A DNA stretch of 64,000 nt from Actinomycetes bacterium. Its GTDB lineage: Bacteria > Auribacterota > JAJCYG01. Below the pieces are notes generated by a model. It was given only the letters and a program-made list of their open reading frames with translations, was not told the DNA's origin and did no database searches. The stretch spans positions 11,458 to 75,457 of the forward strand of contig JAJCYG010000065.1 of the NCBI GenBank assembly GCA_029263055.1. The letters are read 5' to 3'. A program made the translations under genes and the position numbers. Of the stretch, positions 29,385 through 61,651 are shown piece by piece. Positions within the stretch are counted from its first letter, which is position 1. Each line of letters begins with the position of its first letter.

Positions 29385-29395
29385 GAAAAGAGAGT

Positions 29396-31329: not shown

Positions 31330-31333
31330 AACA

Positions 31334-32443: not shown

Positions 32444-32747
32444 ACAGTTTATTGTGTTGTCGATGATTGTTGTTGTGTCAGGGTGTACAGGAGTCGATAA
32501 ACGACCTGTTCAGCCGATTTCATCTCTTGCCTCAAGACGGGGTCAAGATGGTTCCAATCAAATGTTAAAAATACCTGCCGAAATCATTCATCAAAGTGGT
32601 GAAGGGTTTGTTTGGGTGATTAAAGAACTTCTTTCACCTTTTAATGCACTCCGAAAAGGGATGGTAAACGCTTTTGGCGTGACTGAAGAATCAAGCGTTA
32701 AAGAAAAGAGCTATCCCCCTTCTTTAAAAAGATACGATTCTCAATAA
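32427..32747 (+). CDS. Small lipoprotein, hypothetical
   Basis: It has a lipobox VVSGC after a hydrophobic N-terminus and no family assignment. Confidence 0.35.
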   Translation: MSKWVKQFIVLSMIVVVSGCTGVDKRPVQPISSLASRRGQDGSNQMLKIPAEIIHQSGEGFVWVIKELLSPFNALRKGMVNAFGVTEESSVKEKSYPPSLKRYDSQ

Positions 32748-44703: not shown

Positions 44704-45579
44704 ATGGATACGGTTCGTTATTTGATGCTTTCGTTGCGCCCTAAGCAATGGACAAAAAACTTAATCTTATTTGCAGGCCTTCTTTTTTCTCAAAACTTTT
44801 TAAATAAGGCTCTTTTTTTAGAGACGCTGTTTGCCTTTTTTATCTTTTGTTTTTTATCAGGTGCTGTTTATTTAGTGAATGATCTGGTGGATGCACAAAA
44901 AGATCGCAAGCATCCTGAAAAGAAAAAACGTCCGATTGCGGCTAAAAAATTATCGCAATCAACAGCTTTAATCGCGGCTATTGTGATTCCTCTTAGTTGC
45001 ATGGTGCTTGCTTTGCAGCTGAACTTTTCTTTCTTTTTAGTTGCCGCCATCTACTATATTTTAATGCTTGCTTATTCGTTTGCTCTAAAAAAGATGGTGA
45101 TCTTAGATGTGATGACTATTGCCTTTGGGTTTGTGTTGCGGGCTTTAGCAGGGGCTTTGGCGATTCAAGTGGATGTCTCTTCTTGGTTTTTGATCTGTAC
45201 GATCTTATTAGCTCTTTTTCTGGGTCTGGCCAAACGTCGTCATGAGCTTCGTTTGCTTGAGGGAAAGGCAGCTGCCCATCGGGAATCGCTCTCATCTTAT
45301 TCGCCCCAGCTCTTAGATCAGTTGATTGCTGCAGTGACCTCTTCAACCATTTTAGCCTATGCGCTTTACACAATGGGTGAGGAAACAGTGGCAAAATTCG
45401 GAACAGAAAATTTGATATATACCTTACCCTTTGTGATTTACGGTATTTTCCGCTATCTTTACTTGATGTATGTCAAAGAGCATGGGGGCTCTCCTGAAAA
45501 AGTGCTTTTAACGGATAAACCAATGATTGCCAATATCCTTTTGTACCTTGCCGCAGCAGGGGTAATTTTATACTCATAA
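44704..45579 (+). CDS. UbiA-family prenyltransferase. It is homologous to decaprenyl-phosphate phosphoribosyltransferase (the DPPR synthase of the decaprenylphosphoryl-arabinose pathway).
   Basis: The N-terminal LRPKQWTKN motif and YLVNDLVDAQKDRKHPEKKKRPIAA match the RPxQWxKN and YLxNDxxDxxxDRxHPxKxxRPIAAG signatures recalled for Rv3806c-type enzymes. The start was moved to the ATG at 44704. Confidence 0.7.
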   Translation: MDTVRYLMLSLRPKQWTKNLILFAGLLFSQNFLNKALFLETLFAFFIFCFLSGAVYLVNDLVDAQKDRKHPEKKKRPIAAKKLSQSTALIAAIVIPLSCMVLALQLNFSFFLVAAIYYILMLAYSFALKKMVILDVMTIAFGFVLRALAGALAIQVDVSSWFLICTILLALFLGLAKRRHELRLLEGKAAAHRESLSSYSPQLLDQLIAAVTSSTILAYALYTMGEETVAKFGTENLIYTLPFVIYGIFRYLYLMYVKEHGGSPEKVLLTDKPMIANILLYLAAAGVILYS

Positions 45580-45600
45580 TGGAACAATTTTGCTATGATA

Positions 45601-45637
45601 TCTGCCTTCTGACTAGAAGAGTGGCAGACTTTTTTTA
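45601..45637 (+). terminator. Rho-independent terminator after the UbiA-family gene
   Basis: The hairpin TCTGCCTTCT...AGAAGAGTGGCAGA has a bulged stem and is followed by TTTTTTT (45631-45637). Confidence 0.65.
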
Positions 45638-45665
45638 GATAAACGTGAATTAAGGGATTTAAAAC

Positions 45666-46643
45666 ATGAATATTATTGTTACAGGTGGTGCAGGTTTCTT
45701 AGGGTCACATATTTGTGAAAAATTGTTAGATCGAGGGCATCATGTCACTGTGGTTGATATGGCGGATGGCTCCAAAATTGAACATTTGTTGGAAAACCCA
45801 CAATTTGTTTTTCATCAAGATTCTATTTTAAACAACGATCTATGGACTCGAGACATCAATCTAGAAAACATTGATATGATCTTTCACTTTGCTGCTATTG
45901 CAGATCCAAAGCGATATGTGTTTGATCCTTTAACCACATTAGAAATTGATCTTCAAGGGAGCTTAAATGTTTTTAAAGCAGCTGCCCGTCATAAAATTAA
46001 AGTCACTTTTGCTTCAACTTCTGAAATCTATGGAAAGAATCCAAACGTTCCTTGGAAAGAAGATGATGATCGTTTGCTCGGTTCCACACAAATCAATCGT
46101 TGGTGTTACTCTACAGCCAAAGCTGCTGGAGAACATTACCTTCAAGCGTACAATCAAAAAGAGGGTGTTCCCTTTGTGATCTACCGTTTTTTCAATGTGT
46201 ATGGTCCTCGCTTAGATGATTTGGGAAGTGGTCGCGTGATCCCAATCTTTTTAGAGCAGTTCTTAAAAGGGGATCCCATTACGATCCATGGGGATGGAGA
46301 GCAGACTCGAAGTTATGCGTATGTGGATGATGTTGTGGATGGGGTTGTGGAGTGTGGTTTAAACCCTAAAGCCGAAAACCAAATTTTTAATATTGGTAAT
46401 AGCCGTGAAACAAGTGTGAAAGAATTAGCTCAGCTTCTTAAAGAAGCGGGTGGTTTTGATTCAGAGATTACATTTGTGCCGCATAAAGAAGTTTTTGGAG
46501 ACAAATACGAAGATATTCCGCGTCGCGTTCCTGATGTCTCTAAAATCAAACAAGTTGTGGGATGGGAAGACAAGACACCTCTAGAAGAGGGCTTGAAAAA
46601 AACGATCGAGTATTATCAACAACGATCACTTGTCAAAGGATAA
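45666..46643 (+). CDS. NAD-dependent epimerase/dehydratase (extended SDR), UDP-glucuronate decarboxylase / ArnA C-terminal domain-like
   Basis: TGGAGFLGSH, the YxxxK region and the GDGEQTRSYAYVDDVVDG motif are typical of the UXS/ArnA-C family. Confidence 0.75.
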   Translation: MNIIVTGGAGFLGSHICEKLLDRGHHVTVVDMADGSKIEHLLENPQFVFHQDSILNNDLWTRDINLENIDMIFHFAAIADPKRYVFDPLTTLEIDLQGSLNVFKAAARHKIKVTFASTSEIYGKNPNVPWKEDDDRLLGSTQINRWCYSTAKAAGEHYLQAYNQKEGVPFVIYRFFNVYGPRLDDLGSGRVIPIFLEQFLKGDPITIHGDGEQTRSYAYVDDVVDGVVECGLNPKAENQIFNIGNSRETSVKELAQLLKEAGGFDSEITFVPHKEVFGDKYEDIPRRVPDVSKIKQVVGWEDKTPLEEGLKKTIEYYQQRSLVKG

Positions 46644-47622
46644 GCCGTTGTGTCCTCAAACACTATCTCAACTGAATAGTTTAGTTGAAAAGAGTGGTTT
46701 TAATCCTTACCTAGGTGGTCCGGTTCCTTTGAACGCGGACTCAATCCAGCTTTTTGTCCAACAAATCGAATCCCAAAAAGACCAAGAAGGAAATGCTCTC
46801 TTTGTTGAAGAAGAAAAGGGTGTTCTTGTAGGAGCGCTTCTTGTTGAATCGCTTGTCTTTGATTCTGAGTTGTATGGTTTTCCTATGGCTCGCATTAATT
46901 TTCTTTTAGCTGAGGGTGAGTACGAGCAAGAAAAAGAAATTAAGAATCGATTGTTGCAACGTTGTTTTCAGTGGTGTCGTGAAAATGGGATCAAGCATTT
47001 GAGCGCATGCGCTTTGCCTGATGAGATGTCTAAAATTCATGCGTTAGAAGAACATGACTTTTATATGGTGGCCGGGCTATCTACTTTTCTTATTGATCTG
47101 AAAAAATATTCTAATCCATCTAAAGAAAACTCTGTGTTGATTCGTCCTTTTCAAAAGAGTGATTTAGATCCTTTAAGCGAGTTGTCCCGTGTCTCATTTG
47201 GTAATCCTAAAGATTGGTTAGATAAAGCGCATGCCGATCCAAATTTGCCTAAAGATAAAAGTGATGAACTCTATGTGCGTTGGTTTCAAAATTGTTGTAA
47301 TGGCACCCAAGCGCATCAAGTCTTAGTGGCTGATGTAGAGGGCAAGCCTGCAGGTTATATTGCGCTTAAGTTAGAAGAGGGATTGACTCAAGCATGTGGA
47401 GCTCGAGCAGGAAATGTGCCGCTTAATGCTGTGAGCCCTGAGTATAGAAAGATGGGAATTTACTCTAGTTTAGTGCGTGCAGGTTTGGACTGGTACAGCG
47501 GCCAAGTTGATTGGGTGTCGATTAAAACTCAAGTGACTACTTTGGCTGTTCATCGTACTTGGTTAAAGTTAGGTGCGCACATGTCTTCAGTTGAATATGC
47601 TTTCCACAGGTTTTTTAAATAG
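46630..47622 (+). CDS. Hypothetical protein, possibly GNAT-like N-acetyltransferase
   Basis: The C-terminal RKMGIYSSLV region resembles GNAT motif A. The call is weak. Confidence 0.3.
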   Translation: MSKDKPLCPQTLSQLNSLVEKSGFNPYLGGPVPLNADSIQLFVQQIESQKDQEGNALFVEEEKGVLVGALLVESLVFDSELYGFPMARINFLLAEGEYEQEKEIKNRLLQRCFQWCRENGIKHLSACALPDEMSKIHALEEHDFYMVAGLSTFLIDLKKYSNPSKENSVLIRPFQKSDLDPLSELSRVSFGNPKDWLDKAHADPNLPKDKSDELYVRWFQNCCNGTQAHQVLVADVEGKPAGYIALKLEEGLTQACGARAGNVPLNAVSPEYRKMGIYSSLVRAGLDWYSGQVDWVSIKTQVTTLAVHRTWLKLGAHMSSVEYAFHRFFK

Positions 47623-47632
47623 AGGTCTTAAG

Positions 47633-48802
47633 ATGAAAACAGAATCACCGGTTCGAGAAAAATTTTTACCTGTGTCGTTACCTCAGATTGATCAAGAAGA
47701 GATTGATGAAGTGGTTGATTCCATGAAGTCGGGCTGGATTACTACCGGCCCTAAAGTCATGAAGTTTGAAGAAAAGTTTCAAGACTATTTTAATGTTCCT
47801 CATGCGGTTGCGTTGAATTCAGGAACAGCTGCGTTGCATATTTCTTATTTGACAGCAGGTATTGGGCCTGGGGATGAAGTGATCACCACTCCAATGACTT
47901 TTGCCGCAACAGTGAGCATGATCATGCTAGCAGGAGCTAAGCCTGTTTTAGTTGATATTGATTCAGCCACACTGAATCTTGATCCAAACTTAATTGAAAA
48001 AGCAATCACTCTTAAAACCAAAGCGATCGTGCCTGTTCATTTTGGGGGATTGCCATGTGACATGGATGCAATTAACGCTATTGCTAAAAAACATAATTTA
48101 AAAGTGATTGAAGATGCTGCCCATGCAGTTGGTTCGGAATATAAAGGAAAAAAGATAGGACAAATCAGCCCCTTTACCTGTTTTAGTTTTCATCCTATGA
48201 AAAATTTAACCACTGCTGAAGGGGGAATGGTGATTGCTCACTCAGAAGAAGATGCTGAGCAGCTTCGTTTACTTCGTTTCCATGGGATTGATAAAGATGC
48301 TTGGAAACGTTATGAGAAAAAAGGTTCGGCTCGTTATGGTGTGCACCAACTTGGTTTTAAATACAATATGCTTGATCTGCAAGCCGCAATTGGTTTGCAT
48401 CAATTAGATAAGCTGGCTCAATTTAATCATCGCCGTGCTGAGTTGGCTCAACTTTATTTAGGAGTGCTAAGTGATGTAGAAAATATCATCTTACCTCCGA
48501 TCAGTCCGGCTGATTCTGTGCATACATGGCATCTTTTTCCTGTTCAATTTGACATAGATAAAATAGGGAAGAGTCGCGAAGTGATTATGGATGAATTAAA
48601 AGCTGAGAATATTGGGACAGGGGTTCATTACGAAGCCATTCATTTGCATCCTTACTTTGGTGAAGCGTTAAAGTATGAACGAGGAGCCTTTCCAAAAGCA
48701 GAATTTATGTCTGACCGTGTGTTATCACTTCCTTTATTTCCGAAAATGACCAATCAAGATGTTGCTGATGTGGTTGCAGCCATCAAAAAGGTTCTAGGCT
48801 AA
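47633..48802 (+). CDS. DegT/ArnB-like PLP-dependent sugar aminotransferase (UDP-4-keto-sugar aminotransferase)
   Basis: FLPVSLPQIDQEEIDEV...SGWITTGPK matches the ArnB/DegT N-terminus, and the PLP-Lys region is SFHPMKNLTTAEGG. The start was moved to 47633. Confidence 0.85.
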   Translation: MKTESPVREKFLPVSLPQIDQEEIDEVVDSMKSGWITTGPKVMKFEEKFQDYFNVPHAVALNSGTAALHISYLTAGIGPGDEVITTPMTFAATVSMIMLAGAKPVLVDIDSATLNLDPNLIEKAITLKTKAIVPVHFGGLPCDMDAINAIAKKHNLKVIEDAAHAVGSEYKGKKIGQISPFTCFSFHPMKNLTTAEGGMVIAHSEEDAEQLRLLRFHGIDKDAWKRYEKKGSARYGVHQLGFKYNMLDLQAAIGLHQLDKLAQFNHRRAELAQLYLGVLSDVENIILPPISPADSVHTWHLFPVQFDIDKIGKSREVIMDELKAENIGTGVHYEAIHLHPYFGEALKYERGAFPKAEFMSDRVLSLPLFPKMTNQDVADVVAAIKKVLG

Positions 48803-50704
48803 ATGTGCGGACTTTCCGGGGTTTTTTTTGAAGACCCAACCCAACAGATTGAAGAAGTAGCTCTCATTGCCATGCGCGATGTCATGCAATTGCGTGGACC
48901 AGATGAAGCCGGTCTTTTTCGCGAGCCAGGGATAGGTCTGGGGCATCGTCGTCTTTCTGTGATTGATTTGGCTCAAGGGCATCAGCCGATGACCAATGAG
49001 AATGAATCTGTTTGGCTTGTCTATAATGGAGAAGTCTACAACTTTTCCAAACTCCGCTCTCAACTTCAAGGCAAAGGCTATTCTTTTAAAACTAACTCTG
49101 ACACGGAAGTGATTCTACGTGCCTATGAAGCTTATGGTGCGGATTGTGTGCAGCATTTTAATGGGATGTTTGCGTTTGCGATTTACGATAAAAAAGATCG
49201 CTCGCTCTTTATTGCCCGAGACCGCTTGGGAATCAAACCTCTTTATTACACGCATCAAAAAGGAATGTTTGCATTTGCTTCTTCTTTAAAAGCATTATTG
49301 AAGCATGCTGATGTTCCTCTTGAAATTGATAAAGAAGCACTGAATGAATACCTTCTTTTTGAATATGTGCCAGCCCCTCTTTCTATGGTTAAAAATGTGT
49401 TTAAGCTTTTACCGGGTCATCGCGCTCTGTTTAAAGATGGGAAATTAAAGATTGATAAGTATTGGGACTTAAATTATCAGAAGAAAGAGACTAAATCAGT
49501 TCCTGAGTTGTGTGAAGAGCTTAAAGACTTACTCCAGGCATCTGTTAAGCGTCGTCTTATTAGCGATGTGCCGCTCGGTGTTTTTTTGAGTGGTGGCATT
49601 GATTCGAGCGCGATTTTAAGTAGCATGACTGATTTAGGCCACGCCCCTTTAAAAACATTTTCTATTGGGTTTAAGGAAACCTCTTTTAATGAACTAAGCT
49701 ATGCTAGAAAAGTGGCGCAGTATTTTTCAACGGATCACAATGAAATGATGGTGACCCCGCAATCTTTGATTGATCTCTTTCCAAAGGTTTTAGAAGGGAT
49801 TGATGATCCAATAGGAGATCCTTCAGCCGTGCCGACTTATTTGGTTTCTCAATTAGCTCGTCAAAATGTCACAGTCTGTTTGTCTGGAGATGGAGGGGAT
49901 GAACTCTTTGCTGGTTATCCAACTTATCAAGCCTTAAAAATATGGCAGCTTTATTCAAAATTGCCAAAATCAATTCAAAAAGGGATTGCTTTAGGAGTGG
50001 CTGCGCTTCCAACCTCTTTTAGTGATATTAGCTTAGATTATAAATTAAAGAAATTTATGGAAGGAATGCCTTATCCGATTGAACAAGCTAATTTTTTATG
50101 GAAAGGGGCATTCCGTCCTGAAGAAAAAGAACGGCTGCTTTCACCTGAGTATTCTTTAACTCAAGATGGGTACAAAAACTACCAATCCTTAGAACCTTAC
50201 TTAAAGGGGTATCAAGGAAAGGGGCTTTTAGATAAACTATTGTTTCTAGATACCCATGTTTATATGCAAGATGACATTTTGGTTAAAGTCGATCGAATGA
50301 GTATGGCTAATTCATTAGAGGTGCGGGTTCCTCTTTTGGATCATACGATTGCTGAGTTTGCGGCTCGACTACCTGAGAATCTGAAGTTAAAAGGATTAAC
50401 CTCTAAGTTTCTTTTGAAAAAGACAATGGAGGGGAGTCTGCCTAAAGAGATTATCCACCGAAAGAAAAAGGGATTTGGAATTCCTTTTGCGGTTTGGGTG
50501 GCTGAGGCTCTGCTTAAAAACTTTGTGCTAGATTTTTTTGATGAAAAAAAGATTAATGAAGAAGGTTTCTTTAGGTTTGAAGAGATCAAACGCATTTTAG
50601 ATGACCACTTTGGCCAAAAACGAGACAATCGTAAATTGATTTGGACGTTGCTTGTTTTTATTGCTTGGTATCGCGAAGTGCTATCCATTAAAACAAATAG
50701 TTAA
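48803..50704 (+). CDS. Asparagine synthase (glutamine-hydrolysing) family amidotransferase
   Basis: The MCGLSG N-terminal Cys nucleophile and the SGGIDSS PP-loop identify the family. Confidence 0.85.
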   Translation: MCGLSGVFFEDPTQQIEEVALIAMRDVMQLRGPDEAGLFREPGIGLGHRRLSVIDLAQGHQPMTNENESVWLVYNGEVYNFSKLRSQLQGKGYSFKTNSDTEVILRAYEAYGADCVQHFNGMFAFAIYDKKDRSLFIARDRLGIKPLYYTHQKGMFAFASSLKALLKHADVPLEIDKEALNEYLLFEYVPAPLSMVKNVFKLLPGHRALFKDGKLKIDKYWDLNYQKKETKSVPELCEELKDLLQASVKRRLISDVPLGVFLSGGIDSSAILSSMTDLGHAPLKTFSIGFKETSFNELSYARKVAQYFSTDHNEMMVTPQSLIDLFPKVLEGIDDPIGDPSAVPTYLVSQLARQNVTVCLSGDGGDELFAGYPTYQALKIWQLYSKLPKSIQKGIALGVAALPTSFSDISLDYKLKKFMEGMPYPIEQANFLWKGAFRPEEKERLLSPEYSLTQDGYKNYQSLEPYLKGYQGKGLLDKLLFLDTHVYMQDDILVKVDRMSMANSLEVRVPLLDHTIAEFAARLPENLKLKGLTSKFLLKKTMEGSLPKEIIHRKKKGFGIPFAVWVAEALLKNFVLDFFDEKKINEEGFFRFEEIKRILDDHFGQKRDNRKLIWTLLVFIAWYREVLSIKTNS

Positions 50705-50714
50705 GAGGGCGGAT

Positions 50715-51326
50715 ATGTCTGAAGGACATGGCGAACATGACGAGTGGTTTTTTAAATACCCTTCGATCTATCGCTTTTTAAGAACCATTGTCAATCTTGG
50801 GCGATTCACTCAGCCTGTAAAAGAATACCTTCGAGCGACCCCTGAGGAGTCAGTGATTGATGTGGGGTGTGGAGTGGGAGACTTTTCAACAGTGGTTCCG
50901 GGTTCTTACGAGGGCTATGACTTGAATGAACGTTTTATTCAATATGCTCAGAAGAAATTTGGCAATGGGAACAAATCTTTTCATTTCAAGGACGTGTTGG
51001 CTTTACCTGAAACTCAACTTTATGACAAAGGGGTTGTTGTTAATATCATGCATCACTTCACTGATGAAGAACTGAAAATTTTATTGGCTCGCCTCAGAAA
51101 GTTAGTCACAAACTATTTTGTGATTGTGGATGCGGATTGGAACTCTTCTAATCGTTTTCAACGTTGGTTGCTCAATAAAGATCAGGGGAGTCATTTTCGT
51201 GATCGAAAAGATTTGCAAGCACTCTTGTCTCAATATTTTGATTTAGAAGACTTTTCTGTCTTTGAAACACGGTCAAAGTCTGTCTCTTTATTTCGATGCA
51301 TAGCGAAACCTAAACATGAAAATTAA
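50715..51326 (+). CDS. Class I SAM-dependent methyltransferase
   Basis: Motif I is VIDVGCGVGDFS. The start was moved to the ATG at 50715, which has an SD upstream. Confidence 0.55.
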   Translation: MSEGHGEHDEWFFKYPSIYRFLRTIVNLGRFTQPVKEYLRATPEESVIDVGCGVGDFSTVVPGSYEGYDLNERFIQYAQKKFGNGNKSFHFKDVLALPETQLYDKGVVVNIMHHFTDEELKILLARLRKLVTNYFVIVDADWNSSNRFQRWLLNKDQGSHFRDRKDLQALLSQYFDLEDFSVFETRSKSVSLFRCIAKPKHEN

Positions 51327-54300: not shown

Positions 54301-55068
54301 TTTGCCATCTTTCTTAAGAATTTAGAGTTTAAACCAGGAAAGAATAGGGTTTCTCTTTCATTTTATGCCGGTGCTATTCCATTAGGAGAGCTTTTGGGTA
54401 ATGAGGAGCCTCGAGAGGTTCAGTTTGGTGTTCGAAATATTAGAGTGGGTGATTTGACTTTTAGGGAAAAATTTGTGATTCCTTCGGAAAGAGCCTTTAC
54501 TGTGAAATTATTTCCCTTTTTAGGAAAGAACCAAAATAAAAAAGCGTTTCAAGCCGCGAAACATATCTCTTCTGTTGTGATTGATGATCGAGAGTTGTTG
54601 TTGGAGGATGTTTTGGATGGAGAGAAAGGGATGTTTCTTCAAACCAAAGAGCCAATCTTATTAAAAGAGGGGACTCATTTTATTGGGTTTTCAAAGCAAA
54701 TGGACCCCGATTATTTTATTTTGTTACAGAGTGTTGTTAAACCTAAACCCTATGAGTCTAAGTTACAGTTTAAAAGGCTGAATCCAACTCGCATTGAGGC
54801 CCATCTCAACTTAGATCTCGATCAGATTCTTGTTTTTTCTGAAGCATTTGATGGAAAATGGCGTGCTTCTTCAAAAGAGAAAGAGTTTTTTCAGCATTTT
54901 AAGATCAATGGGTATGCTAATGGTTATCTTATCCCTGCTTCTAGTGGTAGAGAGATTACCTTAGAGTATTTTCCTCAAAGAGCTTTCCGTTTTGGGTTGT
55001 CTGTTTCTATACTTTCATTTTTATTGCTTTCACTAACAGCGTTATGGATTAGAAGGTCAAAAAAATAA
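51316..55068 (+). CDS. Large polytopic membrane protein, AftD/DUF3367-like GT-C family glycosyltransferase candidate (paralog 1 of 3)
   Basis: The N-terminal ~450 aa has many TM helices. Its conserved N-terminal block (LLWF...D..LP.T..R....F..W; P.F.F.LPQA..GLLG.S....QR..F..W) resembles the DUF3367 N-terminus. A large extracytoplasmic domain and a C-terminal TM anchor follow. Confidence 0.5.
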   Translation: MKIKAENYHYILIFFLGLTPLLWFEPEYLIKQIDFDLPLTLERFKATFFSMWDYRNGAGLPRSLHMPAFMFFLPQAAMGLLGFSLETIQRFFFCFWFMLPGFAFYYLMKSLLPENSLGNYAGRLVAVSFYMFNLYLEPIWIGFNMANLSSYVAVPFALGVLIKSLPQKSSIYLTAFKVALIFTLFPAMATNPSMTLIAAVPFVVLVIKYLFDEKFKLASIGYIIGLLTLTVTLLGLFNLYWIWPEVKKLFEANMVLTSSGVMGGSLSEDVFFVTDWLKGISSRTSIPAVIKMQGDWPWYQGYRDYVSTYWGNPLWIILAWFPFALSVFALWKAKHQYKWFFGGMLIVALILSTGLHPPFGILFKFLLENVPLFWTIRSPWYKFTFLTCLGYGVLIGLGSQIIFNALSTRKTKWLNTRYIAILLIFIAVSPTYAFPLVKGKHFRRPGPEQGYPNHFKLPSHAKKAADWFNQQKEGGRILDLPSRGITYNEWGYEGFLPLIGYFTHWPLMVDNHPLHIPYQGAWGSSWMYMQKLTRNAFERGLTPYVSNLMRLLRIRYILHEQDFKYPVLPFPTSVKEINSKVDSMVGVEPAKTFEDKWRVWELENLVPEVYSIDKVSLVNGSIDSFVPLSVRMNEEEPGYVLLPEIGSETFETLIAEKTIGEVISFEESLMDWAIESLNPIYLHRITVKNSEEWMVSKTKKFLLSKSDDYLIFAKKLVANREINLRLGVDFTPYPQTTKIHWNLNLFQHSIKEIKKSDFLPENVQMVALKSLVILFGIQYQDVSFHLVKKAANIFLDKNKQGIWNQACLVIDGKSGLNIDQDVHQLSQKYESKKWEFLGTRFFEEGSHRLFAQAVLNRRSVWEFYVVPKQHFMQRFEQVLSLFKDKSVGQSYLLSSTSNWTSVSDLERKSYVITDVEGLEAESDIYNRTFGYSIFNKEFECSASGSYSIIVKNDFDKPIKKSLAFNVISLQKGPKTFDVQFNGKKIRQIIVDPMQNFAIFLKNLEFKPGKNRVSLSFYAGAIPLGELLGNEEPREVQFGVRNIRVGDLTFREKFVIPSERAFTVKLFPFLGKNQNKKAFQAAKHISSVVIDDRELLLEDVLDGEKGMFLQTKEPILLKEGTHFIGFSKQMDPDYFILLQSVVKPKPYESKLQFKRLNPTRIEAHLNLDLDQILVFSEAFDGKWRASSKEKEFFQHFKINGYANGYLIPASSGREITLEYFPQRAFRFGLSVSILSFLLLSLTALWIRRSKK

Positions 55069-55069
55069 G

Positions 55070-58000
55070 ATGAAAAACGAATCAAAGTGGTCCTCTTTAT
55101 TTGATCTGAGTTTGATTTTTCTTTTTGGACTCTTGCCTTTAACTTGGTTTGTAGCAAACCATTTTATTCTTTCAGTTGATTCAAATCTTCCATTTACATT
55201 TGAGCGTTGGATTAACGAAGTCTTTTTTAGTTGGGACACGCACCTTCGAGCAGGGTGGTCGCCTCGGATGATTGAATCGACGCATTTCTTTTTCTTTGTG
55301 CAGTGGTTTTTTCAGTTTTTAGGGCTTGATTTATTAGGCGCACAACGAGCTGTTTTTGTTTTTTGGTTTATGTTGCCTGGATTTACTCAATACTTTTTTC
55401 TTCGATATCTTTTTCGAGACATGCCTCCTGTCGCCAAGCGACTAGCCTGTTTAGCAGGGGTGATGTTTTATATGTTTAATCTCTATCTAGAGCCGATTTG
55501 GTTAGGATTGAATGTGAGTAATTTGTTGGGATATGCGTTTCTGCCTTTATTACTTCGGATTTGGGTTCAAGTTTTAGAAGAACGTCGTTCCCCTGTGTTG
55601 TACGGCTTTTTATTTGCTTTGGTCTCTATCATGGCCTCAGGAATTGCCACAAATCCTGCCAATGTCTTTGTTTGTTCTATTCCTTTTTTTATTTTTGCTG
55701 CGATTGCTTTAGTTAAAGGCTTTAAAACAAAGGGTGGGGTGATTCATCTTATTTTATTCCTCTTTTTTACTCTGTTGTTTTCTCTGTTGTTTAATGCTTA
55801 TTGGATATTAACGGAATGGCAAAAAGTTTTTGTGACTTCTTTTGATTCAACAAAAGCAGCTGGTGAGGGCTTTATTGTTGAAGCATGGTTAGAAGGGGTC
55901 TCTAGGTACACGAGTTTTACTAATGTGATTCGTCTGTTAGGGAGTTGGACTTGGTTTGCTTCTCCTCGGGCATACAATACCTTGATTTTAACCAATCCAA
56001 TTTTTGTCATTTTTAGTTGGTTGGTTCCTGTCTTTGGTTTAATTGGACTGTTCTGTAAGACTCGTTATCGTTCTTTGTTTGGGGTCGTGCTTGTTTTAGG
56101 CATCATTCTCTCTATGGGAATCCATTTTCCTTTTAAACATGTTTATATGTGGATGGTGGAGCATGTCCCATTCTTTTGGTTGGTAAGAAGTCCTTGGTAT
56201 AAATTTATGATCTTAACTTGTTTGGGCTATTCATATTTTTTTGGAGTGGCTGCGGCTAAAATTTATCAGTGGGGAATGACGCCAAGTCGCAATCCTAAAA
56301 GGCGACGGCGTTTGACTTTTGCTGTTGTCTTTTTAGTGATTTTTCTTTCACCTATTTATGCGTTTCCTGTTTCTTTAGGAAAAATGTTTTTAAAACCAGA
56401 AGAGTCTAGTTATACAAATCATTTTCAAGTTCCTGAGTATGTTTATCAAACGAGCGATTATCTGAATAAAAAACCTGGGAATAATCGTATTTGGTCTCTG
56501 CCTGGAAAAGGTTTCTTCATGAATAACTGGGGCTTCTCTGGTTTTTCACCTTTTTTACCGTATGAGGTTTCCAAACCGATTCTTTACACAGATCACAACT
56601 TATCGATCCCTATTTCAGAGCAATGGCTCTCAGCTATTTCTCATCCCTTTCACATTATTCAGAATAGCTTTGAAAAGCAACTCACCCCTAATTTGTACCG
56701 AGTCTTAGGTCTTTTTAATGTAGATACACTTGTGACTGAAAATGATTTTAAATTCGCAGCATTGCCAGTTCCTTATTCTAAGAAAGAAATGAGTGACTCG
56801 GTTGAATTGCTTTGGGGAGTGGATAAAGAAAAATCATTTGGAGAATGGGATGTTTATCAATTGGCTCAACCTCAGCCTCTGATTTATAAAACTCAATCTG
56901 TTAATTTTGTTGAAGATCACATCGATGCACTGGTTCCTCTTTCAAATACAAACCAGTTAAATCGTTCTGCTTCATTTTTTGCTGAAGATTTGTCTGATAA
57001 GCAAAGAAACCTTCTTTTTCAAGACCAGGAAGTGAAGCACTTGGTTTTAAATAATCGATCCTGGTTTGATTTGGCTGTTGATTTGATGGAGCCTATTGAA
57101 AAAGTTCGCCTCTCTTTTGATAAAAAAGAGATTCCAGCCATTGAAATTAATGTGTCTGAAACAGGCTTTTATTATTTCTATGCGACTGCAGGTCGATCTA
57201 TAGGCTGGACGCGGCCTCGGCCTTTAGTCGATAAGCAGGAACTGGCTCAGACCCTTCCTGTGCAGTGGAGTCCTAATCTATTAGAAAAAGAGAATTGGCT
57301 TTCTGTAAACCAAATTCAAATTAAGCCAGTTTTATTTCAAGATCGTCCTAAAAAAGAGATGAATCAAGCGATCAAATGGGAAATGGTGGGGCAGCTTTAC
57401 TTGGAAGAGGGAAAACAGGAGCTTCGAGTAGAAGGATGGCAGCCAGACAAAGGGAATGTGACTGTTGCGGTTGTGCCTAAAGAAGAGGCTCAAGTCAAGC
57501 TGAGTCGCGTGCAAGAGCTCTATAAGAGTTCAACACTTTCTGTTTCTCAGTTCTTATCAACAGATTCTGCTTGGAGGCATGGGGGATGGGCACAAACCGA
57601 TCCTGGATTAGTGTCTCCTGATCCTGCTGTTAAATGGAAGCTAGCTGGCGTTTTTGAAAAATTGTTTGAGTTTCAAGGTTCTTCTCAGTGGCATCAATTG
57701 AGGCATGATGATATTGCGCTTGAGATTGAGAACAATCAGAAAGAATTGAAGCAGACTCGATTGGCTTTTAAGGTACTTTCCATTCAACCGACTCAAAGAG
57801 AAATTTATGTTTTTTTAAATGGAGAGCGGATTCAAAAGCTTAACGTTGAACCGATGGAAGAGTTAGGGGTTTCTGTTTTATTACAGCTAAATCCAGGTTT
57901 GAATAAAGTGCATTTTCAAACAAATGGATCGCCTGAGCCAATCAGTAAATTCTATAAAAATGATGATGAGCGTAGAGTGATTATGCTGGCAAAACAAATT

Positions 58001-58654
58001 GAGATAGGGCACCTTTCTTTTGTTTCGGATCTTTACTTGCCTGAAAGAGAGTCTTTTGTGGTTCGAGTCTATCCTTTTCGAGTACAAAAAGAGAGGGATC
58101 CTGAATTTTCAGATTTAAATAGAACGTTGAAGATTAATAACAAAGCTCTTCCTTTAAAAATGACAAAAGGGGAGTTTGGAGCACCTTATTGGGAGTCTGC
58201 CCAGCTTCATTCTTTTTCTGGAAAAAGAGTAAAGATTGAGTTTAAAGAAAGAGAAGGAAATCGTTATTTTATTGAAGTTCTTTCGGGGCAACCTGCTTCC
58301 CTTGAGAATGAGTCCCTTGTTGAGTTTACTCGACTTAATCCAACTAAGATTGAAGGGAGCCTTCAAACCAACAAGCCTGAATGGTTTATCTTTAGTGAAT
58401 CGTTTGATCCTCGGTGGGTTCTTTTGATTAATGGAAAAGAGTTTTTGCCCATTAAAGTAAATAGCTATGCCAATGCTTATAAAATTCCTTCTACAAATGG
58501 AGAGGTTGTTTCATTTGAATTGGAGTTTGGGCCTCAGAAGTGGATGTGGCGAGGCATTCGAATCTCTTTAGCCAGCTTGGCAGGATCGACTTTATTTGTT
58601 TTGATCTTATTGCTTTTTAAACGCCACTATCGTAGAAAAAAGTACACTCAGTAG
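55070..58654 (+). CDS. AftD/DUF3367-like GT-C family membrane protein (paralog 2 of 3)
   Basis: Same architecture and N-terminal motifs as 51316-55068. Confidence 0.5.
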   Translation: MKNESKWSSLFDLSLIFLFGLLPLTWFVANHFILSVDSNLPFTFERWINEVFFSWDTHLRAGWSPRMIESTHFFFFVQWFFQFLGLDLLGAQRAVFVFWFMLPGFTQYFFLRYLFRDMPPVAKRLACLAGVMFYMFNLYLEPIWLGLNVSNLLGYAFLPLLLRIWVQVLEERRSPVLYGFLFALVSIMASGIATNPANVFVCSIPFFIFAAIALVKGFKTKGGVIHLILFLFFTLLFSLLFNAYWILTEWQKVFVTSFDSTKAAGEGFIVEAWLEGVSRYTSFTNVIRLLGSWTWFASPRAYNTLILTNPIFVIFSWLVPVFGLIGLFCKTRYRSLFGVVLVLGIILSMGIHFPFKHVYMWMVEHVPFFWLVRSPWYKFMILTCLGYSYFFGVAAAKIYQWGMTPSRNPKRRRRLTFAVVFLVIFLSPIYAFPVSLGKMFLKPEESSYTNHFQVPEYVYQTSDYLNKKPGNNRIWSLPGKGFFMNNWGFSGFSPFLPYEVSKPILYTDHNLSIPISEQWLSAISHPFHIIQNSFEKQLTPNLYRVLGLFNVDTLVTENDFKFAALPVPYSKKEMSDSVELLWGVDKEKSFGEWDVYQLAQPQPLIYKTQSVNFVEDHIDALVPLSNTNQLNRSASFFAEDLSDKQRNLLFQDQEVKHLVLNNRSWFDLAVDLMEPIEKVRLSFDKKEIPAIEINVSETGFYYFYATAGRSIGWTRPRPLVDKQELAQTLPVQWSPNLLEKENWLSVNQIQIKPVLFQDRPKKEMNQAIKWEMVGQLYLEEGKQELRVEGWQPDKGNVTVAVVPKEEAQVKLSRVQELYKSSTLSVSQFLSTDSAWRHGGWAQTDPGLVSPDPAVKWKLAGVFEKLFEFQGSSQWHQLRHDDIALEIENNQKELKQTRLAFKVLSIQPTQREIYVFLNGERIQKLNVEPMEELGVSVLLQLNPGLNKVHFQTNGSPEPISKFYKNDDERRVIMLAKQIEIGHLSFVSDLYLPERESFVVRVYPFRVQKERDPEFSDLNRTLKINNKALPLKMTKGEFGAPYWESAQLHSFSGKRVKIEFKEREGNRYFIEVLSGQPASLENESLVEFTRLNPTKIEGSLQTNKPEWFIFSESFDPRWVLLINGKEFLPIKVNSYANAYKIPSTNGEVVSFELEFGPQKWMWRGIRISLASLAGSTLFVLILLLFKRHYRRKKYTQ

Positions 58655-61651
58655 GCTGGTAATCAATCCAATAAGTGTTAGTAGCCAGAAGAGGTCAAAC
58701 CACTTTTGCGGCGTGAAGTCGAGCAAGACCGTAAAGCTTCCTGTCTGATCAATGTAATAACCGTTTGCAAATCCATTTGCCTTACCGTGAATATTAAAAT
58801 AATGATTTTCCCCATCTATGATTGTTGAAGCTTTCCAATAAGGGTGGTAAGACTCGGAAAAGATAAGCACAAATGGTTTTTCTGTTTTGACTTTAATTTG
58901 ATGTTGAGTTGAAGAAATCATTTCGTGGCTTAAATCGGTCTTTTCTTCTTTAGTTGAAAATGAAGCTTTAGCTGTTCGGCTCAATTCGATAAAGTAGTTA
59001 TCTTTTCCTGATTGTTCTACGAGTAATTGTTTGTTTTTATCGTTAAGATTAAGTGTTGCTTTAAAGTGGTCTACCTTTGAGTTGTTTGCCTTCTTAAGAG
59101 ATATTTTATTCTGATCTAACCATGCAAAAGGTGAGGCGCTTCCTTGTGGGGGATAGATTTTAAGTTGCACACTCTCTTTTTTAGGTTGTTCTAGTGGGAC
59201 TTTAAAAGAGATTGTGCCGTATTTAAATGAGTTTTTGTTTAATCCAAAGCTTGTCCCGAAACCTCCCCATCCAGAATGTTGAAATGGAGAATAAAAATGG
59301 ATTTTATTTTTACCTGGTTTTAACTCAATTTTTTTAACAAGAAGAGAGGTTATTTGATCCGCTTTTAGTTGAACAATTCTAAGGTTTTTTCCATCTTGTT
59401 GAACGTAAAATGAACGATCATTTTCTAGACTAAACACATCAAAAGAAAAGTTAATAAAGATTGTTTCTTGGGTGGGATTATTAAAGTAGATGCCATCTGT
59501 ATTCCCATCCCACCAGGTCCAGGTAATGTTGTCTTCGATTTTTAAAGGAACATGGTTTAAAAACTGGATGTCCATTTTGATTTTTTGGTGTAGTTTTTTG
59601 TTATTAGGGCTTTCTTCAATAATCACAGCTTCCAGATTTTCGCTGTTTACGACAAGGCGGTTGTCATGCGAAAAAACAGAATCGATTTTTGTGGCTTCAG
59701 CAAGTTTAAAACTAGAATCAGGGTTTAAGAAGAGTGCCTCATGTTCTTGGGGATGATTTTGAAAGGTCCACCAAGTGAATAAGGAAGTGTCTCCATTTAA
59801 GAGCAATGTATTTTTAGGGGAGGCAGCATAAATAAATGGAGTGATGCTACTTGTTTCATAAAATTGCCATTCACCAAATAACTGGCTTTGCTTGATCCCT
59901 TTTTGTTTATTTAGTTTGCTTTCAATAAATTTAGGATCATCTCCCAAAACATAGCCAAGCCCCTTGTAGAAGTCATACCGAATATCTTTTTCATGTAAAA
60001 GGTACTTGATTTGAAATAAGCTTAAAAGCTCTTCAGCGTAAGGAGTGGTTTCATTATAAATTTGATAGCGTATGGCTTCTAACAGTTCCTTGCCTTGGTT
60101 AATCGGGCCTTGTGCTGTGAGTGTGTAGTGGTGATGGTGAGGGAATGCCAAATTCTTAGAAGAAAACTCATTTGAAAAAGAACCATAGTTTGTCCCCCCC
60201 CAATTATAAATATAGGGGTTGTCACCAGGCAGAGTGAAGTAACGAAAAAAGCCTGGCTGATCATCTAGCCACTTTGATGCTTTAAAGACATAGTCAGGGA
60301 TTTCAAACCGATTTGGAGAAAGAAACTTTCGAGTCTCTTTAGCATGAAAAAACTTTCCTGTTGTGATTGGAAAGGCATAAACCAAATTGCTTAAACAAAG
60401 GAGAGTGATTAAAGTAATGCCGATTGCTTTTCTCTTAGACGTTATTTTATAAATTAAATGACACGCTGCGCCAAACAATACTGCGTAACCTAGGCAGACC
60501 CAGAAATAAAATTTTAAATAAGGACTTCTGAAGATCCAAAACAGAGGCATATTTTCAGTTAACCAAATATAGAGAGAACCAAATGGAGCATGGGCACCCA
60601 TTGAAAGAAAAATACCGGTGAGGGTTAAAAAGATAAATGTTTTCCGAAATGAGATTGATTTGTTCCAGCAACCGATTAAAGCCATTAAAGGGACTATCCA
60701 GCTCAGGCAGTAGAGAAATGTTTTAGGGGCATAAGAAGATGAGTAAGAACGATACGGATCCACACATCCTTGATACCAAGTCCAATCACCTAAGGTGCGA
60801 ATCACATTTGAGAAACTAGTATAAATACTCATTCCTTTTAACCAGCCGATTAGTTCTGCTGGAGTTGCGATTTCACCCCCCATTTTTAAAATTGCATTTC
60901 TATAGATTGCCATGGCTTGAGGAAAGAGCCAGTAGATATTGGCACAAAGCCAAATGCAAAGAAGCGCCAAGGTTTTAAATGTTAAAAGTTTAAACAGACC
61001 AAAGTTTTTCCATGCTTTGCCGCGAATAAAAAAGGAGATAAAGACAATAATGATTGGAGCAACCGACGCGCCAAATTCAGAAGGATTATTTCCCATCCCT
61101 GAAGCGAAAAAAGAGACTAAGAAATAAAGGGCCGCTCCAAGAGAAAACTTAATTTCACCTCGAAAGATTTGAATGCTGAGTGCGAGTAAAATAGGAACCA
61201 GTGCATAGGCTGTGATAAGTGGGGGCTTAAACCCAATCCAAACATTTTCAAGCCAGAGGTTAAAAAGGTAAAAGCTCAGTCCGCCTAAGCGAAAGATGAG
61301 AGAGCCGGGTCCTTTGTAAAGCGTGCGTAGCAAATAAATAATCCCAAAACCAGCCAAGGTGTACCAAAAGACAAACATGATTTTTTGAGTGGAGAGAAGT
61401 GAGAGTCCCCATTCTTGCAATAAGGCAGGTAAAAGCATCATGGGCATCAAGCAGTTATCAAAAATCAGTTCGCTTCCAGTGTTCCATCCATGATGCCAAA
61501 CTGAGAAGAGGGCCTTCCATTTGTCTAAGGTATAAGGCAAGCGGACATCTTCTGCTTTTAAAATCTCATTTCCCTCAAACCACAATAGGGGAACAAGTCC
61601 GCAAAGCAAGACAACTAAGAAGTCAATATTTCGAATAAAACGGTTCTTCAT
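58607..61651 (-). CDS. AftD/DUF3367-like GT-C family membrane protein (paralog 3 of 3), on the opposite strand
   Basis: Same architecture. Its 3' end overlaps the 3' end of 55070-58654 by 48 nt, so both C-terminal TM anchors are encoded in the same DNA. Confidence 0.5.
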   Translation of the reverse strand: MKNRFIRNIDFLVVLLCGLVPLLWFEGNEILKAEDVRLPYTLDKWKALFSVWHHGWNTGSELIFDNCLMPMMLLPALLQEWGLSLLSTQKIMFVFWYTLAGFGIIYLLRTLYKGPGSLIFRLGGLSFYLFNLWLENVWIGFKPPLITAYALVPILLALSIQIFRGEIKFSLGAALYFLVSFFASGMGNNPSEFGASVAPIIIVFISFFIRGKAWKNFGLFKLLTFKTLALLCIWLCANIYWLFPQAMAIYRNAILKMGGEIATPAELIGWLKGMSIYTSFSNVIRTLGDWTWYQGCVDPYRSYSSSYAPKTFLYCLSWIVPLMALIGCWNKSISFRKTFIFLTLTGIFLSMGAHAPFGSLYIWLTENMPLFWIFRSPYLKFYFWVCLGYAVLFGAACHLIYKITSKRKAIGITLITLLCLSNLVYAFPITTGKFFHAKETRKFLSPNRFEIPDYVFKASKWLDDQPGFFRYFTLPGDNPYIYNWGGTNYGSFSNEFSSKNLAFPHHHHYTLTAQGPINQGKELLEAIRYQIYNETTPYAEELLSLFQIKYLLHEKDIRYDFYKGLGYVLGDDPKFIESKLNKQKGIKQSQLFGEWQFYETSSITPFIYAASPKNTLLLNGDTSLFTWWTFQNHPQEHEALFLNPDSSFKLAEATKIDSVFSHDNRLVVNSENLEAVIIEESPNNKKLHQKIKMDIQFLNHVPLKIEDNITWTWWDGNTDGIYFNNPTQETIFINFSFDVFSLENDRSFYVQQDGKNLRIVQLKADQITSLLVKKIELKPGKNKIHFYSPFQHSGWGGFGTSFGLNKNSFKYGTISFKVPLEQPKKESVQLKIYPPQGSASPFAWLDQNKISLKKANNSKVDHFKATLNLNDKNKQLLVEQSGKDNYFIELSRTAKASFSTKEEKTDLSHEMISSTQHQIKVKTEKPFVLIFSESYHPYWKASTIIDGENHYFNIHGKANGFANGYYIDQTGSFTVLLDFTPQKWFDLFWLLTLIGLITSLLSVLFSTIVAFKKQ

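Follow-up and report, generated by a model that had tools for sequence, protein, structure and literature searches.

A probable surface-glycan operon with a phosphoribosyltransferase homologue and four predicted GT-C-fold transferases in an uncultured deep-branching bacterium

In this study, we analysed a 64-kb window (the whole stretch of DNA under examination) from an uncultured, deep-branching bacterium. On balance, at somewhat better than even chances, we read positions 38456-63532 (~25 kb) as a single conserved surface-glycan operon that would build or decorate an extracytoplasmic glycan from lipid-linked monosaccharide donors, among them one derived from a polyprenyl-phosphate 5-phosphoribosyltransferase (PPPRS, or DPPR synthase, homologue). 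Between 38456 and 58654, thirteen genes follow one another in the same direction, separated by short gaps or overlapping, and their order is found entire in two related genomes, whose versions of the second AftD-like paralog are 62% and 39% identical to the one described here. A 2024 study had already found that systems combining PPPRS, a flippase and a GT-C transferase are widespread outside Actinobacteria and include elaborate variants with multiple GT-Cs (Kelly et al., PNAS 2024; PMC11127046), so the operon represents a variant and no new pathway. The view in the preliminary description that such gene sets are characteristic of Corynebacterineae with a few exceptions is thus out of date; our metagenome scan also returned more than 545 relatives of PPPRS. 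Its placement of the locus in a Chlamydiae-like context is likewise not supported. Identity of the Ffh protein encoded in the window is 73-83% to its relatives and then drops to ~55-61% for members of several phyla; none of the 120 best matches listed bears a Chlamydiota name.

The phosphoribosyltransferase and its operon

Homology identifies the product of 44704-45579 (+ strand, 291 aa, UbiA superfamily) as a predicted PRPP:polyprenyl-phosphate 5-phosphoribosyltransferase, in agreement with the earlier assignment to the DPPR-synthase type. It scores 285.8 bits against the NCBIfam model NF008977 (cutoff 234) and aligns with mycobacterial Rv3806c (PDB 8j8j), the type of enzyme with which arabinan synthesis begins, across aa 7-287, that is, full length (E=1.6e-37). 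The PRPP/Mg-binding residues of Rv3806c are kept at nine of eleven positions (R22, K28, Y70, N73, D77, K87, R90, Y138 and K143). Of these, N73 and D77 are ligands of Mg, K28 and Y70 are the 5-phosphate ligands specific to PRTases, and R22, K87, R90 and K143 make up the entire pyrophosphate cluster. Q135, which contacts ribose O3, is replaced by Met. The motifs quoted in the preliminary description were also seen, namely LRPKQWTKN and YLVNDLVDAQKDRKHPEKKKRPIAA, the latter with NDxxDxxxD at aa 59-67. Both NDxxDxxxD and KRxxEL, the motifs mutated in ORF15 of Citrobacter youngae, are found in PPPRS.

The co-directional array opens with a MOP-superfamily flippase (Wzx/MurJ/MATE-like; 38456-39754, + strand, 432 aa), as judged by homology (Pfam Polysacc_synt 39.5 bits, MurJ 33.6, MatE 20.9). 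It has ~12-14 hydrophobic segments, keeps its position in the related loci L116 and L118, and is a candidate exporter of the lipid-linked sugar. A second set of genes, all on the + strand, resembles the Arn pathway and by homology would encode an Arn-like donor branch. Its GT2 enzyme (39751-40599), of the polyprenyl-phosphate sugar synthase type (ArnC/GtrB/DPMS) and with no predicted TM helix, has ArnC (75.7 bits), PgfS, PpgS, AglJ and Dol-P-hexose transferase as top NCBIfam models, and its best seven PDB sequence matches are ArnC, DPMS and GtrB (E=6e-18 to 7e-14). The SDR at 45666-46643 is of the UDP-glucuronate decarboxylase type (UXS or ArnA C-domain); its top PDB match is human UXS1 over the full length (E=1e-60, with ASTSEIYG aligned to ASTSEVYG), followed by ArnA decarboxylase domains at E ~1e-42, and it reaches 201.7 bits against NF008872 (cutoff 294). 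A WecD-like GNAT N-acyltransferase (46630-47622; Pfam Acetyltransf_1; WecD/RffC models at 64 and 52 bits, under cutoff) probably acylates a 4-amino sugar, and a DegT-family sugar 4-aminotransferase (47633-48802; Pfam DegT 447.8 bits) scores 424 bits against ArnB (cutoff 631) and 397 against PseC. Every Arn-like assignment in the operon falls under its NCBIfam equivalog cutoff.

The remaining genes, again on the + strand, encode putative glycosyl transfer and tailoring enzymes. A second GT2 (40596-41591; Pfam Glycos_transf_2 61.5 bits) carries a C-terminal hydrophobic segment and resembles MftF (NCBIfam, 101.8 bits, under cutoff). The B12-binding radical SAM enzyme at 41621-43150 (Pfam Radical_SAM and B12-binding; HpnJ-like at 129.8 bits, well under cutoff) is inferred to act in tailoring. 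A glutamine-dependent amidotransferase of the AsnB family (48803-50704; Pfam Asn_synthase and GATase_7) resembles XrtA/PEP-CTERM amidotransferases, under cutoff (641.9 bits against 816.9), and is a candidate for glycan tailoring. Finally, there are a SAM-dependent methyltransferase (50715-51326; Pfam Methyltransf_25/23/31) and an O-carbamoyltransferase of the NodU/CmcH family (61868-63532; Pfam Carbam_trans_N and Carbam_trans_C).

Four predicted GT-C-fold transferases

Homology and structural modelling place four GT-C-fold transferases in the operon. Three of them are AftD-like paralogs whose periplasmic domains are large and beta-rich: paralog 1 (51316-55068, 1250 aa), paralog 2 (55070-58654, 1194 aa) and paralog 3 (58607-61651, 1014 aa). 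All three, like PPPRS, had been located correctly in the preliminary description, which had put the trio on the minus strand. This holds for paralog 3; paralogs 1 and 2 lie on the + strand, so that paralogs 2 and 3 are convergent, with 3′ ends overlapping by 48 bp. Their paralogy was borne out by BLASTP (pairwise identity 29-30%; E=3e-157, 1e-75 and 5e-84). Paralogs 1 and 2 are 29% identical across 1244 columns (E=3e-157), and paralog 3 matches both at 30% over the N-terminal 620-650 aa and at 24-25% over the C-terminal 300 aa. Each begins with a polytopic domain of ~440 aa, continues into an extensive soluble region rich in beta structure and ends in a single TM helix.

The proposed likeness to AftD was upheld. 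PF11847 matches paralog 2 at 43 bits (gathering score 26), the paralog 1 orthologue in L032, and 14 of 22 members of the AftD-like family overall; the family profile matches AftD (PDB 6w98) at E=3e-16; and a Foldseek search with an AF2 model of paralog 2 (pLDDT 82.8) returned 6w98 first (E=6.5e-25), the next fold following at 7e-6. As in mycobacterial AftD, a GT-C domain is combined with periplasmic beta-rich domains and a C-terminal beta-sandwich with a TM helix. Identity in the structural alignment is only ~12%, however, and a single C-terminal TM helix stands in place of TM13-16 and the four-helix ACP-binding bundle. The EL1 Asp after TM1 is invariant in 23/23 aligned sequences, paralogs 1 and 3 included. 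AftD D474 and E475 are not conserved; opposite the essential D474 this family has Gly-Phe, and the active site thus differs from that of AftD.

The fourth predicted GT-C (43164-44702, + strand, 512 aa) belongs to a family without a Pfam model and is the best conserved protein across the cluster. Its stop codon falls 1 nt ahead of the PPPRS start. This neighbour of PPPRS, the MOP flippase and the Arn-like second-donor branch were all absent from the preliminary description. Outside the operon, a Dpy19-like protein at 35417-37339 is a possible fifth GT-C.

Partners of the AftD-like genes and the choice of donor

The AftD-like superfamily comprises ~15,000 cluster representatives, and in 30 distant AftD-like loci (±10 kb around the AftD-like gene) the conserved partners were the carbamoyltransferase (15 loci), the 43164-44702 GT-C family (10) and the UXS/ArnA-type decarboxylase (8), rather than PPPRS (UbiA gene in 0/30). 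Carbamoyltransferase, the commonest neighbour across phyla, was counted from homologues of at least 200 bits, most of them 47-56% identical and five weaker (29-34%). In six distant loci the decarboxylase gene directly follows the 43164-44702-family gene, and two or three AftD-like genes occur in 19 of the 30. Conversely, AftD-like and 43164-44702-type neighbours are absent from all 80 closest metagenomic PPPRS loci, some of which adjoin MatE, MurJ or PMT_2-type GT-C genes. Among the loci compared, the pairing of DPPR synthase with AftD-like genes emphasised earlier holds as one operon in three genomes of a single lineage, and not beyond it. Such a distribution would be consistent with an ancestral core of AftD-like paralogs, the 43164-44702 GT-C, decarboxylase and carbamoyltransferase, common to Omnitrophota, Chloroflexota and Nitrospinaceae MAGs, with PPPRS as a lineage-specific addition placed exactly between the 43164-44702 and decarboxylase genes.

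These counts also favour an alternative that we consider possible but clearly the less probable. Here, the AftD-like paralogs and 43164-44702 would use only hexose- or pentopyranose-type donors from the ArnC-like GT2, made by an Arn-like route (UDP-GlcA to a 4-keto-pentose, then to 4-amino- and 4-acetamido-pentose, or to xylose), and PPPRS would serve a distinct, minor modification of side chains or a GT-C that is not one of the trio, for example 43164-44702 alone or the Dpy19-like protein. The nearest relatives of the GT2 and the SDR fit this proposal. However, the GT2 lacks a TM helix, the Arn-like scores are all sub-cutoff, and PPPRS keeps its mid-operon position, one base after a GT-C gene, in three genomes. 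Moreover, GT-Cs of pentofuranose systems can be donor-promiscuous (PMC11127046). The operon resembles the Arn system for lipid A L-Ara4N (PmrHFIJKLM) in encoding decarboxylase-type SDR, ArnB-best DegT, ArnC-best GT2 and GT-Cs together, but has no formyltransferase, ArnD deformylase or ArnE/F, carries a GNAT and a MOP flippase instead, and its GT-Cs fall outside the ArnT family by sequence.

In the explanation we prefer, the PPPRS product would be dephosphorylated by a phosphatase encoded outside the locus and then flipped, and one or more GT-Cs would take polyprenyl-P-ribofuranose as donor. PPPRS, flippase and GT-C would thereby constitute a three-component pentofuranose system as described by Kelly et al. 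(2024). A further lipid-linked pentose donor, either a 4-acetamido-4-deoxy-pentose or of xylose type, would come from the Arn-like branch, and the product would be tailored by the radical SAM enzyme, amidotransferase, methyltransferase and carbamoyltransferase. The closest parallel is C. youngae O1/O2, where ORF15 (PPPRS), ORF14 (MATE flippase) and ORF12 (a GT136 GT-C) form such a system (PMC11127046); both clusters unite an Rv3806c-type PPPRS, a MOP/MATE-superfamily flippase and GT-C(s) in one non-actinobacterial glycan locus. In contrast to C. youngae, PPPRS here lacks a fused HAD phosphoribose-phosphatase domain, with no separate phosphatase seen at the locus, and there are four GT-Cs and a parallel Arn-like branch. 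The GT-Cs are AftD-like (PF11847) or of the no-Pfam family, and some may belong to GT136; the adjacent SDR is UXS/ArnA-like and may resemble the ORF13 epimerase.

Identity of the pentofuranose

Scanning ORFs of at least 120 aa, all except a few short ones overlapping other genes, revealed no FAD_binding_4 (DprE1-type), short-chain DprE2-type, PAP2 or HAD protein in the 64-kb window, which agrees with the earlier remark that no DprE1/DprE2 pair is evident. Likewise, L032, L034, L116 and L118 contained no DprE1/E2-type protein, and neither the window nor these loci contained a phosphoribose 5-phosphatase (HAD PRP domain or PAP2), leaving one required step without an enzyme at the locus. Given these absences, the pentofuranose is most likely ribofuranose and unlikely to be arabinofuranose; of the two sugars considered in the preliminary description, the first is thus favoured and the second unsupported.

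A mycobacterial-type arabinan pathway, in which the PPPRS product would be epimerised to polyprenyl-P-arabinofuranose and the AftD-like trio would polymerise or branch an arabinan-like polymer, accordingly appears improbable. In its favour, PPPRS is a true Rv3806c homologue, AftD is the nearest solved relative of the three large proteins, and these genes share an operon kept in three genomes. Against it stand the missing epimerases, the altered D474/E475 positions, the lost C-terminal bundle and the 0/30 linkage. Mycobacteria possess Rv3806c, the phosphatase Rv3807c, DprE1/DprE2 and AftD; the present locus has neither DprE1/E2 nor a PAP2 phosphatase, and its genes are clustered, with the AftD-like genes as tandem paralogs. 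In mycobacteria, aftD is likewise unlinked to Rv3806c, and missing linkage is therefore no disproof of a common pathway.

Very improbable, finally, is a prenyltransferase of another kind, aromatic or otherwise (menaquinone, heme O, chlorophyll or archaeal-lipid type), encoded incidentally in a glycan operon: the UbiA protein does belong to the superfamily (Pfam PF01040, 102 bits), but all other UbiA subfamily models score at most 51 bits, far under their cutoffs, and the protein keeps K28 and Y70, the ligands specific for phosphoribose. Its ORF has two possible starts, 44641 (312 aa, a version not on record) and 44704, and the latter is the start common to the orthologues in L032 and L034.

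Phosphoribosyltransferase gene and operon content

We found the observation behind the preliminary description, a DPPR-synthase homologue together with three AftD-like GT-C proteins, to be confirmed, and its reading as a polyprenyl-phospho-pentofuranose pathway to be partly supported. By its gene content, the window appears to combine a lipid-linked pentofuranose system with a glycan operon that is conserved, uncharacterised and rich in GT-Cs. The UbiA-superfamily gene proved to be of the proposed DPPR-synthase type (polyprenyl-phosphate 5-phosphoribosyltransferase, PPPRS). Its best start is at 44704, giving a 291-aa protein (44704-45579) of the same length as its orthologues in two related contigs; an exact-match look-up returned no record of a 312-aa version of this ORF, which fits the 291-aa start. 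The protein carries the motifs LRPKQWTKN and YLVNDLVDAQKDRKHPEKKKRPIAA, and exceeds the cutoffs of NCBIfam NF008977, decaprenyl-phosphate phosphoribosyltransferase (285.8 bits, cutoff 234), and NF008978 (211.4 bits, cutoff 207). Assignment to another UbiA prenyltransferase subfamily is rejected on the scores of the other NCBIfam models (heme O, ubiquinone, menaquinone, chlorophyll, GGGP), each of which reaches at most 51 bits.

Rv3806c of M. tuberculosis (PDB 8j8j) aligns with PPPRS from end to end (E=1.6e-37), and its ligand residues (listed in PMC10994848) were placed on PPPRS through the HMMER alignment to 8j8j. The Mg2+ ligands Asn73 and Asp77 are kept as N59 and D63, which stand with D67 in NDLVDAQKD (NDxxDxxxD), and the second cytoplasmic-loop motif is present as KRRHEL from aa 177 (residue roles of both motifs: PMC10994848; PMC11127046). 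Also kept are the 5-phosphate ligands K28 and Y70 (K18 and Y56 in PPPRS); Rv3806c does not share phosphoribose-binding sites of this kind with the UbiA superfamily (PMC10994848). The pyrophosphate ligands R22, K87, R90, K143 and Y138 correspond to R12, K73, R76, K129 and Y124. Of the two further phosphoribose-specific ligands, Y157 is replaced by Phe143, a variant that also occurs in some mycobacteria, and Q135 is not conserved (Met121). We regard the UbiA protein as a putative phosphoribosyltransferase.

PPPRS is the sixth of 13 co-directional, tightly packed genes (38456-58654), which are followed by a third AftD-like gene (58607-61651, minus strand) and a carbamoyltransferase gene. The array opens with a MOP-family flippase (38456-39754), a GT2 enzyme that finds its best relatives, in NCBIfam and the PDB alike, exclusively among polyprenyl-phosphate sugar synthases (ArnC, PgfS, PpgS, DPMS, GtrB), a second GT2, a B12 radical SAM enzyme and a 512-aa GT-C membrane protein of a family without a Pfam model (43164-44702). 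After PPPRS it continues with an SDR of the UDP-glucuronate decarboxylase type (45666-46643), a GNAT protein, a DegT aminotransferase with ArnB as best match, an AsnB-type amidotransferase, a methyltransferase and AftD-like paralogs 1 and 2 (51316-55068 and 55070-58654). The SDR is unlikely to be the missing DprE2/ORF13-type lipid-pentose epimerase, as among solved structures it comes closest to human UXS1 (E=1e-60 over the full length), with which it has the ASTSE(V/I)YG motif in common, and next to the decarboxylase domains of ArnA. The operon resembles the Arn L-Ara4N pathway in its logic only, the NCBIfam equivalog cutoffs not being reached (ArnA 170 vs 777, ArnB 424 vs 631, ArnC 75.7 vs 529), and neither a formyltransferase nor a deformylase was found in it. 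Judged from these assignments, the operon would hold two donor-making routes, a flippase and four extracytoplasmic GT-Cs. The first route would lead from PRPP to polyprenyl-P-ribose, and the second, Arn-like route from UDP-GlcA through a 4-keto-, 4-amino- or 4-acetamido-pentose (or xylose) to a polyprenyl-P-sugar.

Kinship of the three large membrane proteins to AftD

The preliminary description gave the coordinates of the three large genes correctly, but the minus strand is true only of paralog 3 (58607-61651); paralogs 1 and 2 lie on the plus strand. Paralog 3 is convergent with paralog 2, and their 3′ ends overlap by 48 bp (58607-58654), an overlap also kept in the related loci L032 and L034. 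The three proteins are 29-30% identical to each other (E=3e-157 to 1e-75) and have a common layout, in which about 440 N-terminal residues form a polytopic domain, followed by a large soluble region rich in beta structure and one C-terminal TM helix. Pfam PF11847 (GT-C_AftD, DUF3367) matched paralog 2 with 43 bits (gathering score 26); paralogs 1 and 3 gave no match at E<=0.01, yet are clear homologues of paralog 2, and within the AftD-like family 14 of 22 members match the model. Searched against the PDB, the family profile had AftD (6w98) as its sole match (E=3.4e-16), covering chain residues 438-569 and 1193-1281 and running through the periplasmic domain and the C-terminal beta-sandwich with the TM helix. 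Structurally, the AlphaFold model of paralog 2 (pLDDT 82.8) likewise had AftD 6w98 as its best Foldseek match (E=6.5e-25, TM-score 0.48/0.45, about 1430 alignment columns), the next being STT3 (E=7e-6). Paralog 2 is therefore modelled with the AftD fold and domain order, consisting of a GT-C TM domain, periplasmic domains and a C-terminal beta-sandwich. In AftD, the C-terminal TM13-16 form a four-helix bundle that binds acyl carrier protein (bioRxiv 10.1101/2019.12.22.885152), whereas paralog 2 has a single C-terminal helix (H1154-1193 in the model; one hydrophobic segment).

The position directly after TM1 is the canonical one for the catalytic acid of GT-C enzymes. Here, an Asp is invariant in all 23 aligned sequences, the three window paralogs included, and in profile alignments this residue (D37 in paralog 2) lies two residues from the essential D41 of AftD. 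In the 43164-44702 GT-C, the EL1 Asp is D30. In AftD, K39, D41, E251, K361 and D474 are essential and W272 is invariant (bioRxiv 10.1101/2019.12.22.885152). W272 is matched by W293; the essential D474/E475 face Gly-Phe in the alignment and have not been conserved. The alignments gave no placement for E251 or K361, and a sub-alignment profile intended to bring K361 onto the RSPWYKF motif of the family had no AftD match. Together, PF11847, the profile search, Foldseek and the invariant Asp argue that the three large proteins are divergent enzymes, predicted to work like GT-C transferases, with AftD as their nearest relative. Arabinofuranosyl specificity cannot be taken over from the AftD name.

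A tiny AftD-like family, as a word-indexed search with 27 matches had implied, was overturned by an exhaustive HMM search, which returned 14,987 cluster representatives at E<=0.001 and 3,253 at E<=1e-30. Chloroflexota members are labelled by NCBI as 'alpha-(1->3)-arabinofuranosyltransferase family protein', and from these members and the profile-search counts, AftD-like proteins appear to be common in sequence space outside Actinobacteria. A literature search for papers on DUF3367 or on AftD homologues outside mycobacteria yielded nothing relevant.

Linkage of the genes and the predicted sugar

The whole gene order is kept in two related uncultured genomes, with identities of 62% and 39% for paralog 2, 80% and 77% for the homologue of the 43164-44702 GT-C, and 81% and 78% for PPPRS. 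Farther afield, a scan of 185,579 species genomes gave 30 distant AftD-like loci (22-33% identity), hosted by Omnitrophota, Chloroflexota, Nitrospinaceae, Planctomycetia, Patescibacteria and Gammaproteobacteria MAGs. Of these 30 loci, 19 have two or three AftD-like genes, 15 a carbamoyltransferase, 10 the GT-C family of 43164-44702 and 8 a UXS-type decarboxylase; a UbiA gene was found within ±10 kb of none, even at E<=10. In six of them the decarboxylase gene comes directly after the 43164-44702-type GT-C gene, and PPPRS of the window's lineage sits exactly at this junction. The ancestral core would comprise the AftD-like paralogs, the 43164-44702 GT-C, the decarboxylase and the carbamoyltransferase. 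From the other side, a metagenome scan with PPPRS returned more than 545 relatives, and in the neighbourhoods of the best 80 (47-59% identity) no AftD-like or 43164-44702-type gene was seen. Sampled neighbours include MatE, MurJ and a PMT_2-type GT-C, which fit a generic three-component scheme.

A general linkage of PPPRS with AftD-like genes, tested in both directions, was thus not found beyond the three related genomes (0/30 loci; 0/80 best relatives), and these two counts confine the coupling proposed earlier to the window's lineage, where the association is real. This removes support for a shared pathway but does not disprove it, since each locus was viewed over ±10 kb and mycobacterial aftD is likewise unlinked to Rv3806c.

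In the related locus L032 (GCA_040960375.1), genes for an MBOAT protein, a KAS III-like enzyme, an acyl carrier protein and a 404-aa protein lie between paralog 3 and the carbamoyltransferase (16593-20341, minus strand), which suggests glycan O-acylation in that genome. The acyl carrier protein gene deserves mention because mycobacterial AftD binds such a protein (bioRxiv 10.1101/2019.12.22.885152).

A PPPRS, together with a MATE flippase and the GT-C that founded GT136, has been shown experimentally to attach ribofuranose, in the periplasm, to O antigens (Kelly et al., PNAS 2024, PMC11127046). ORF13, an SDR epimerase, converts the donor to Xylf, and DprE1/E2 homologues go with Araf systems (PMC11127046). 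Like these systems, the window encodes PPPRS (44704-45579), a MOP flippase (38456-39754) and GT-Cs (43164-44702 and 51316-61651) together. Unlike them, it shows no phosphoribose phosphatase, its GT-Cs belong to the AftD-like family and to the family without a Pfam match, they number four, and a parallel Arn-like branch is present. With these differences, its predicted gene products fit the three-component pentofuranose scheme. DprE1/E2 were found neither in the window, where a scan of its ORFs bore out the absence already remarked upon, nor in the related loci L032, L034, L116 and L118, and ribofuranose is therefore the default prediction for the pentofuranose. Their absence from the window also argues against decaprenyl-P-Araf as donor for the AftD-like enzymes. 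No HAD or PAP2 protein was detected among the scanned window ORFs or in the same four loci, and PPPRS, with 291 aa and no extra domain, has no fused HAD PRP domain.

As lipid-linked pentofuranose pathways outside Actinobacteria are already established, current understanding is not overturned, and the pathway concept is unsurprising after 2024. The leads lie in the conserved core of AftD-like, 43164-44702-type GT-C, decarboxylase and carbamoyltransferase genes in uncultured phyla, and in the GT-C family itself, which is well conserved and lacks a Pfam model. MAGs of Omnitrophota, Chloroflexota and Nitrospinaceae repeatedly combine tandem AftD-like paralogs with this GT-C family, a UDP-GlcA decarboxylase and a carbamoyltransferase; in those of Planctomycetia, Patescibacteria and Gammaproteobacteria, some or all of these partners of the AftD-like genes are missing. 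It is conceivable, though we think it rather improbable, that the recurring set is an undescribed, widespread extracytoplasmic machine polymerising a carbamoylated envelope polymer rich in pentose, which would do in uncultured phyla what arabinan does in mycobacteria; the window's lineage would have added a ribofuranose donor to it. To our knowledge, work on AftD-type enzymes has so far treated them solely as essential arabinofuranosyltransferases adjacent to drug targets; if our main reading of the operon, as a lipid-linked pentofuranose system, is right, they would be no mycobacterial speciality but one branch of a large environmental superfamily that uses lipid-linked pentoses to build cell-envelope glycans in several uncultured phyla. 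The locus is a compact, testable operon, and the farnesyl-P-Ribf assays already established for Citrobacter could be applied to PPPRS, the flippase and the four GT-Cs.

Lineage and flanking genes

Housekeeping genes in the window are rho, prfA, prmC, murA, ffh, trmD, rplS, rnhB and nadA. The closest relatives of its Ffh are 73-83% identical, followed at about 55-61% by Clostridia, Deltaproteobacteria, Negativicutes and Verrucomicrobiota, and the best named match among the 120 best listed is a Verrucomicrobiota MAG (61%). The lineage is deep-branching and uncultured. Its placement outside Actinobacteria was correct, but a 'Chlamydiae-like' context was not borne out, there being no Chlamydiota name among the 120 best Ffh matches listed. 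The 64-kb window contained no rRNA, tRNA or Rfam RNA.

Just upstream of the glycan operon, a Dpy19-like protein (35417-37339, minus strand; PF10034 31.7 bits, gathering score 27.2) is a possible fifth GT-C. Beside it lies a gene for an 884-aa protein with two F5/8 type C (discoidin/CBM32-like) domains (32741-35395, minus strand); the PDB name of the AftD chain 6w98_A is likewise 'F5/8 type C domain-containing protein'. Related locus L116 retains the F5/8 protein, and L118 lacks both genes. Directly upstream of the operon, on the opposite strand, a CsgG-like lipoprotein (37368-38183, minus strand; PF03783 37.4 bits) may serve as an outer-membrane secretion channel. Adjoining the operon is a second glycan cluster (24717-32443, plus strand), which is ABC-transporter-dependent in type and encodes Wzm (ABC2_membrane), Wzt with a Wzt_C carbohydrate-binding domain, three GT4/GT1 enzymes, RmlD and a DegT aminotransferase. 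As such a cluster stands beside the operon in L118 too, its polymer may be the acceptor decorated by the operon GT-Cs. Directly upstream of Wzm/Wzt is a 1149-aa TPR-repeat protein (21215-24664, plus strand), and a TPR protein is also found beside a PPPRS in metagenome locus L085. Nearly all window genes lie on the plus strand, and 31 of the 32 bins of 2 kb (1-64000) show a positive GC skew, the cumulative skew rising almost monotonically. The gene at 4155-6038 (plus strand) has an unusual domain combination, its 627-aa product being a fusion of an aldo/keto reductase domain (aa 24-344) and, towards the C-terminus, a chlorite dismutase/HemQ-like domain (aa 518-620).
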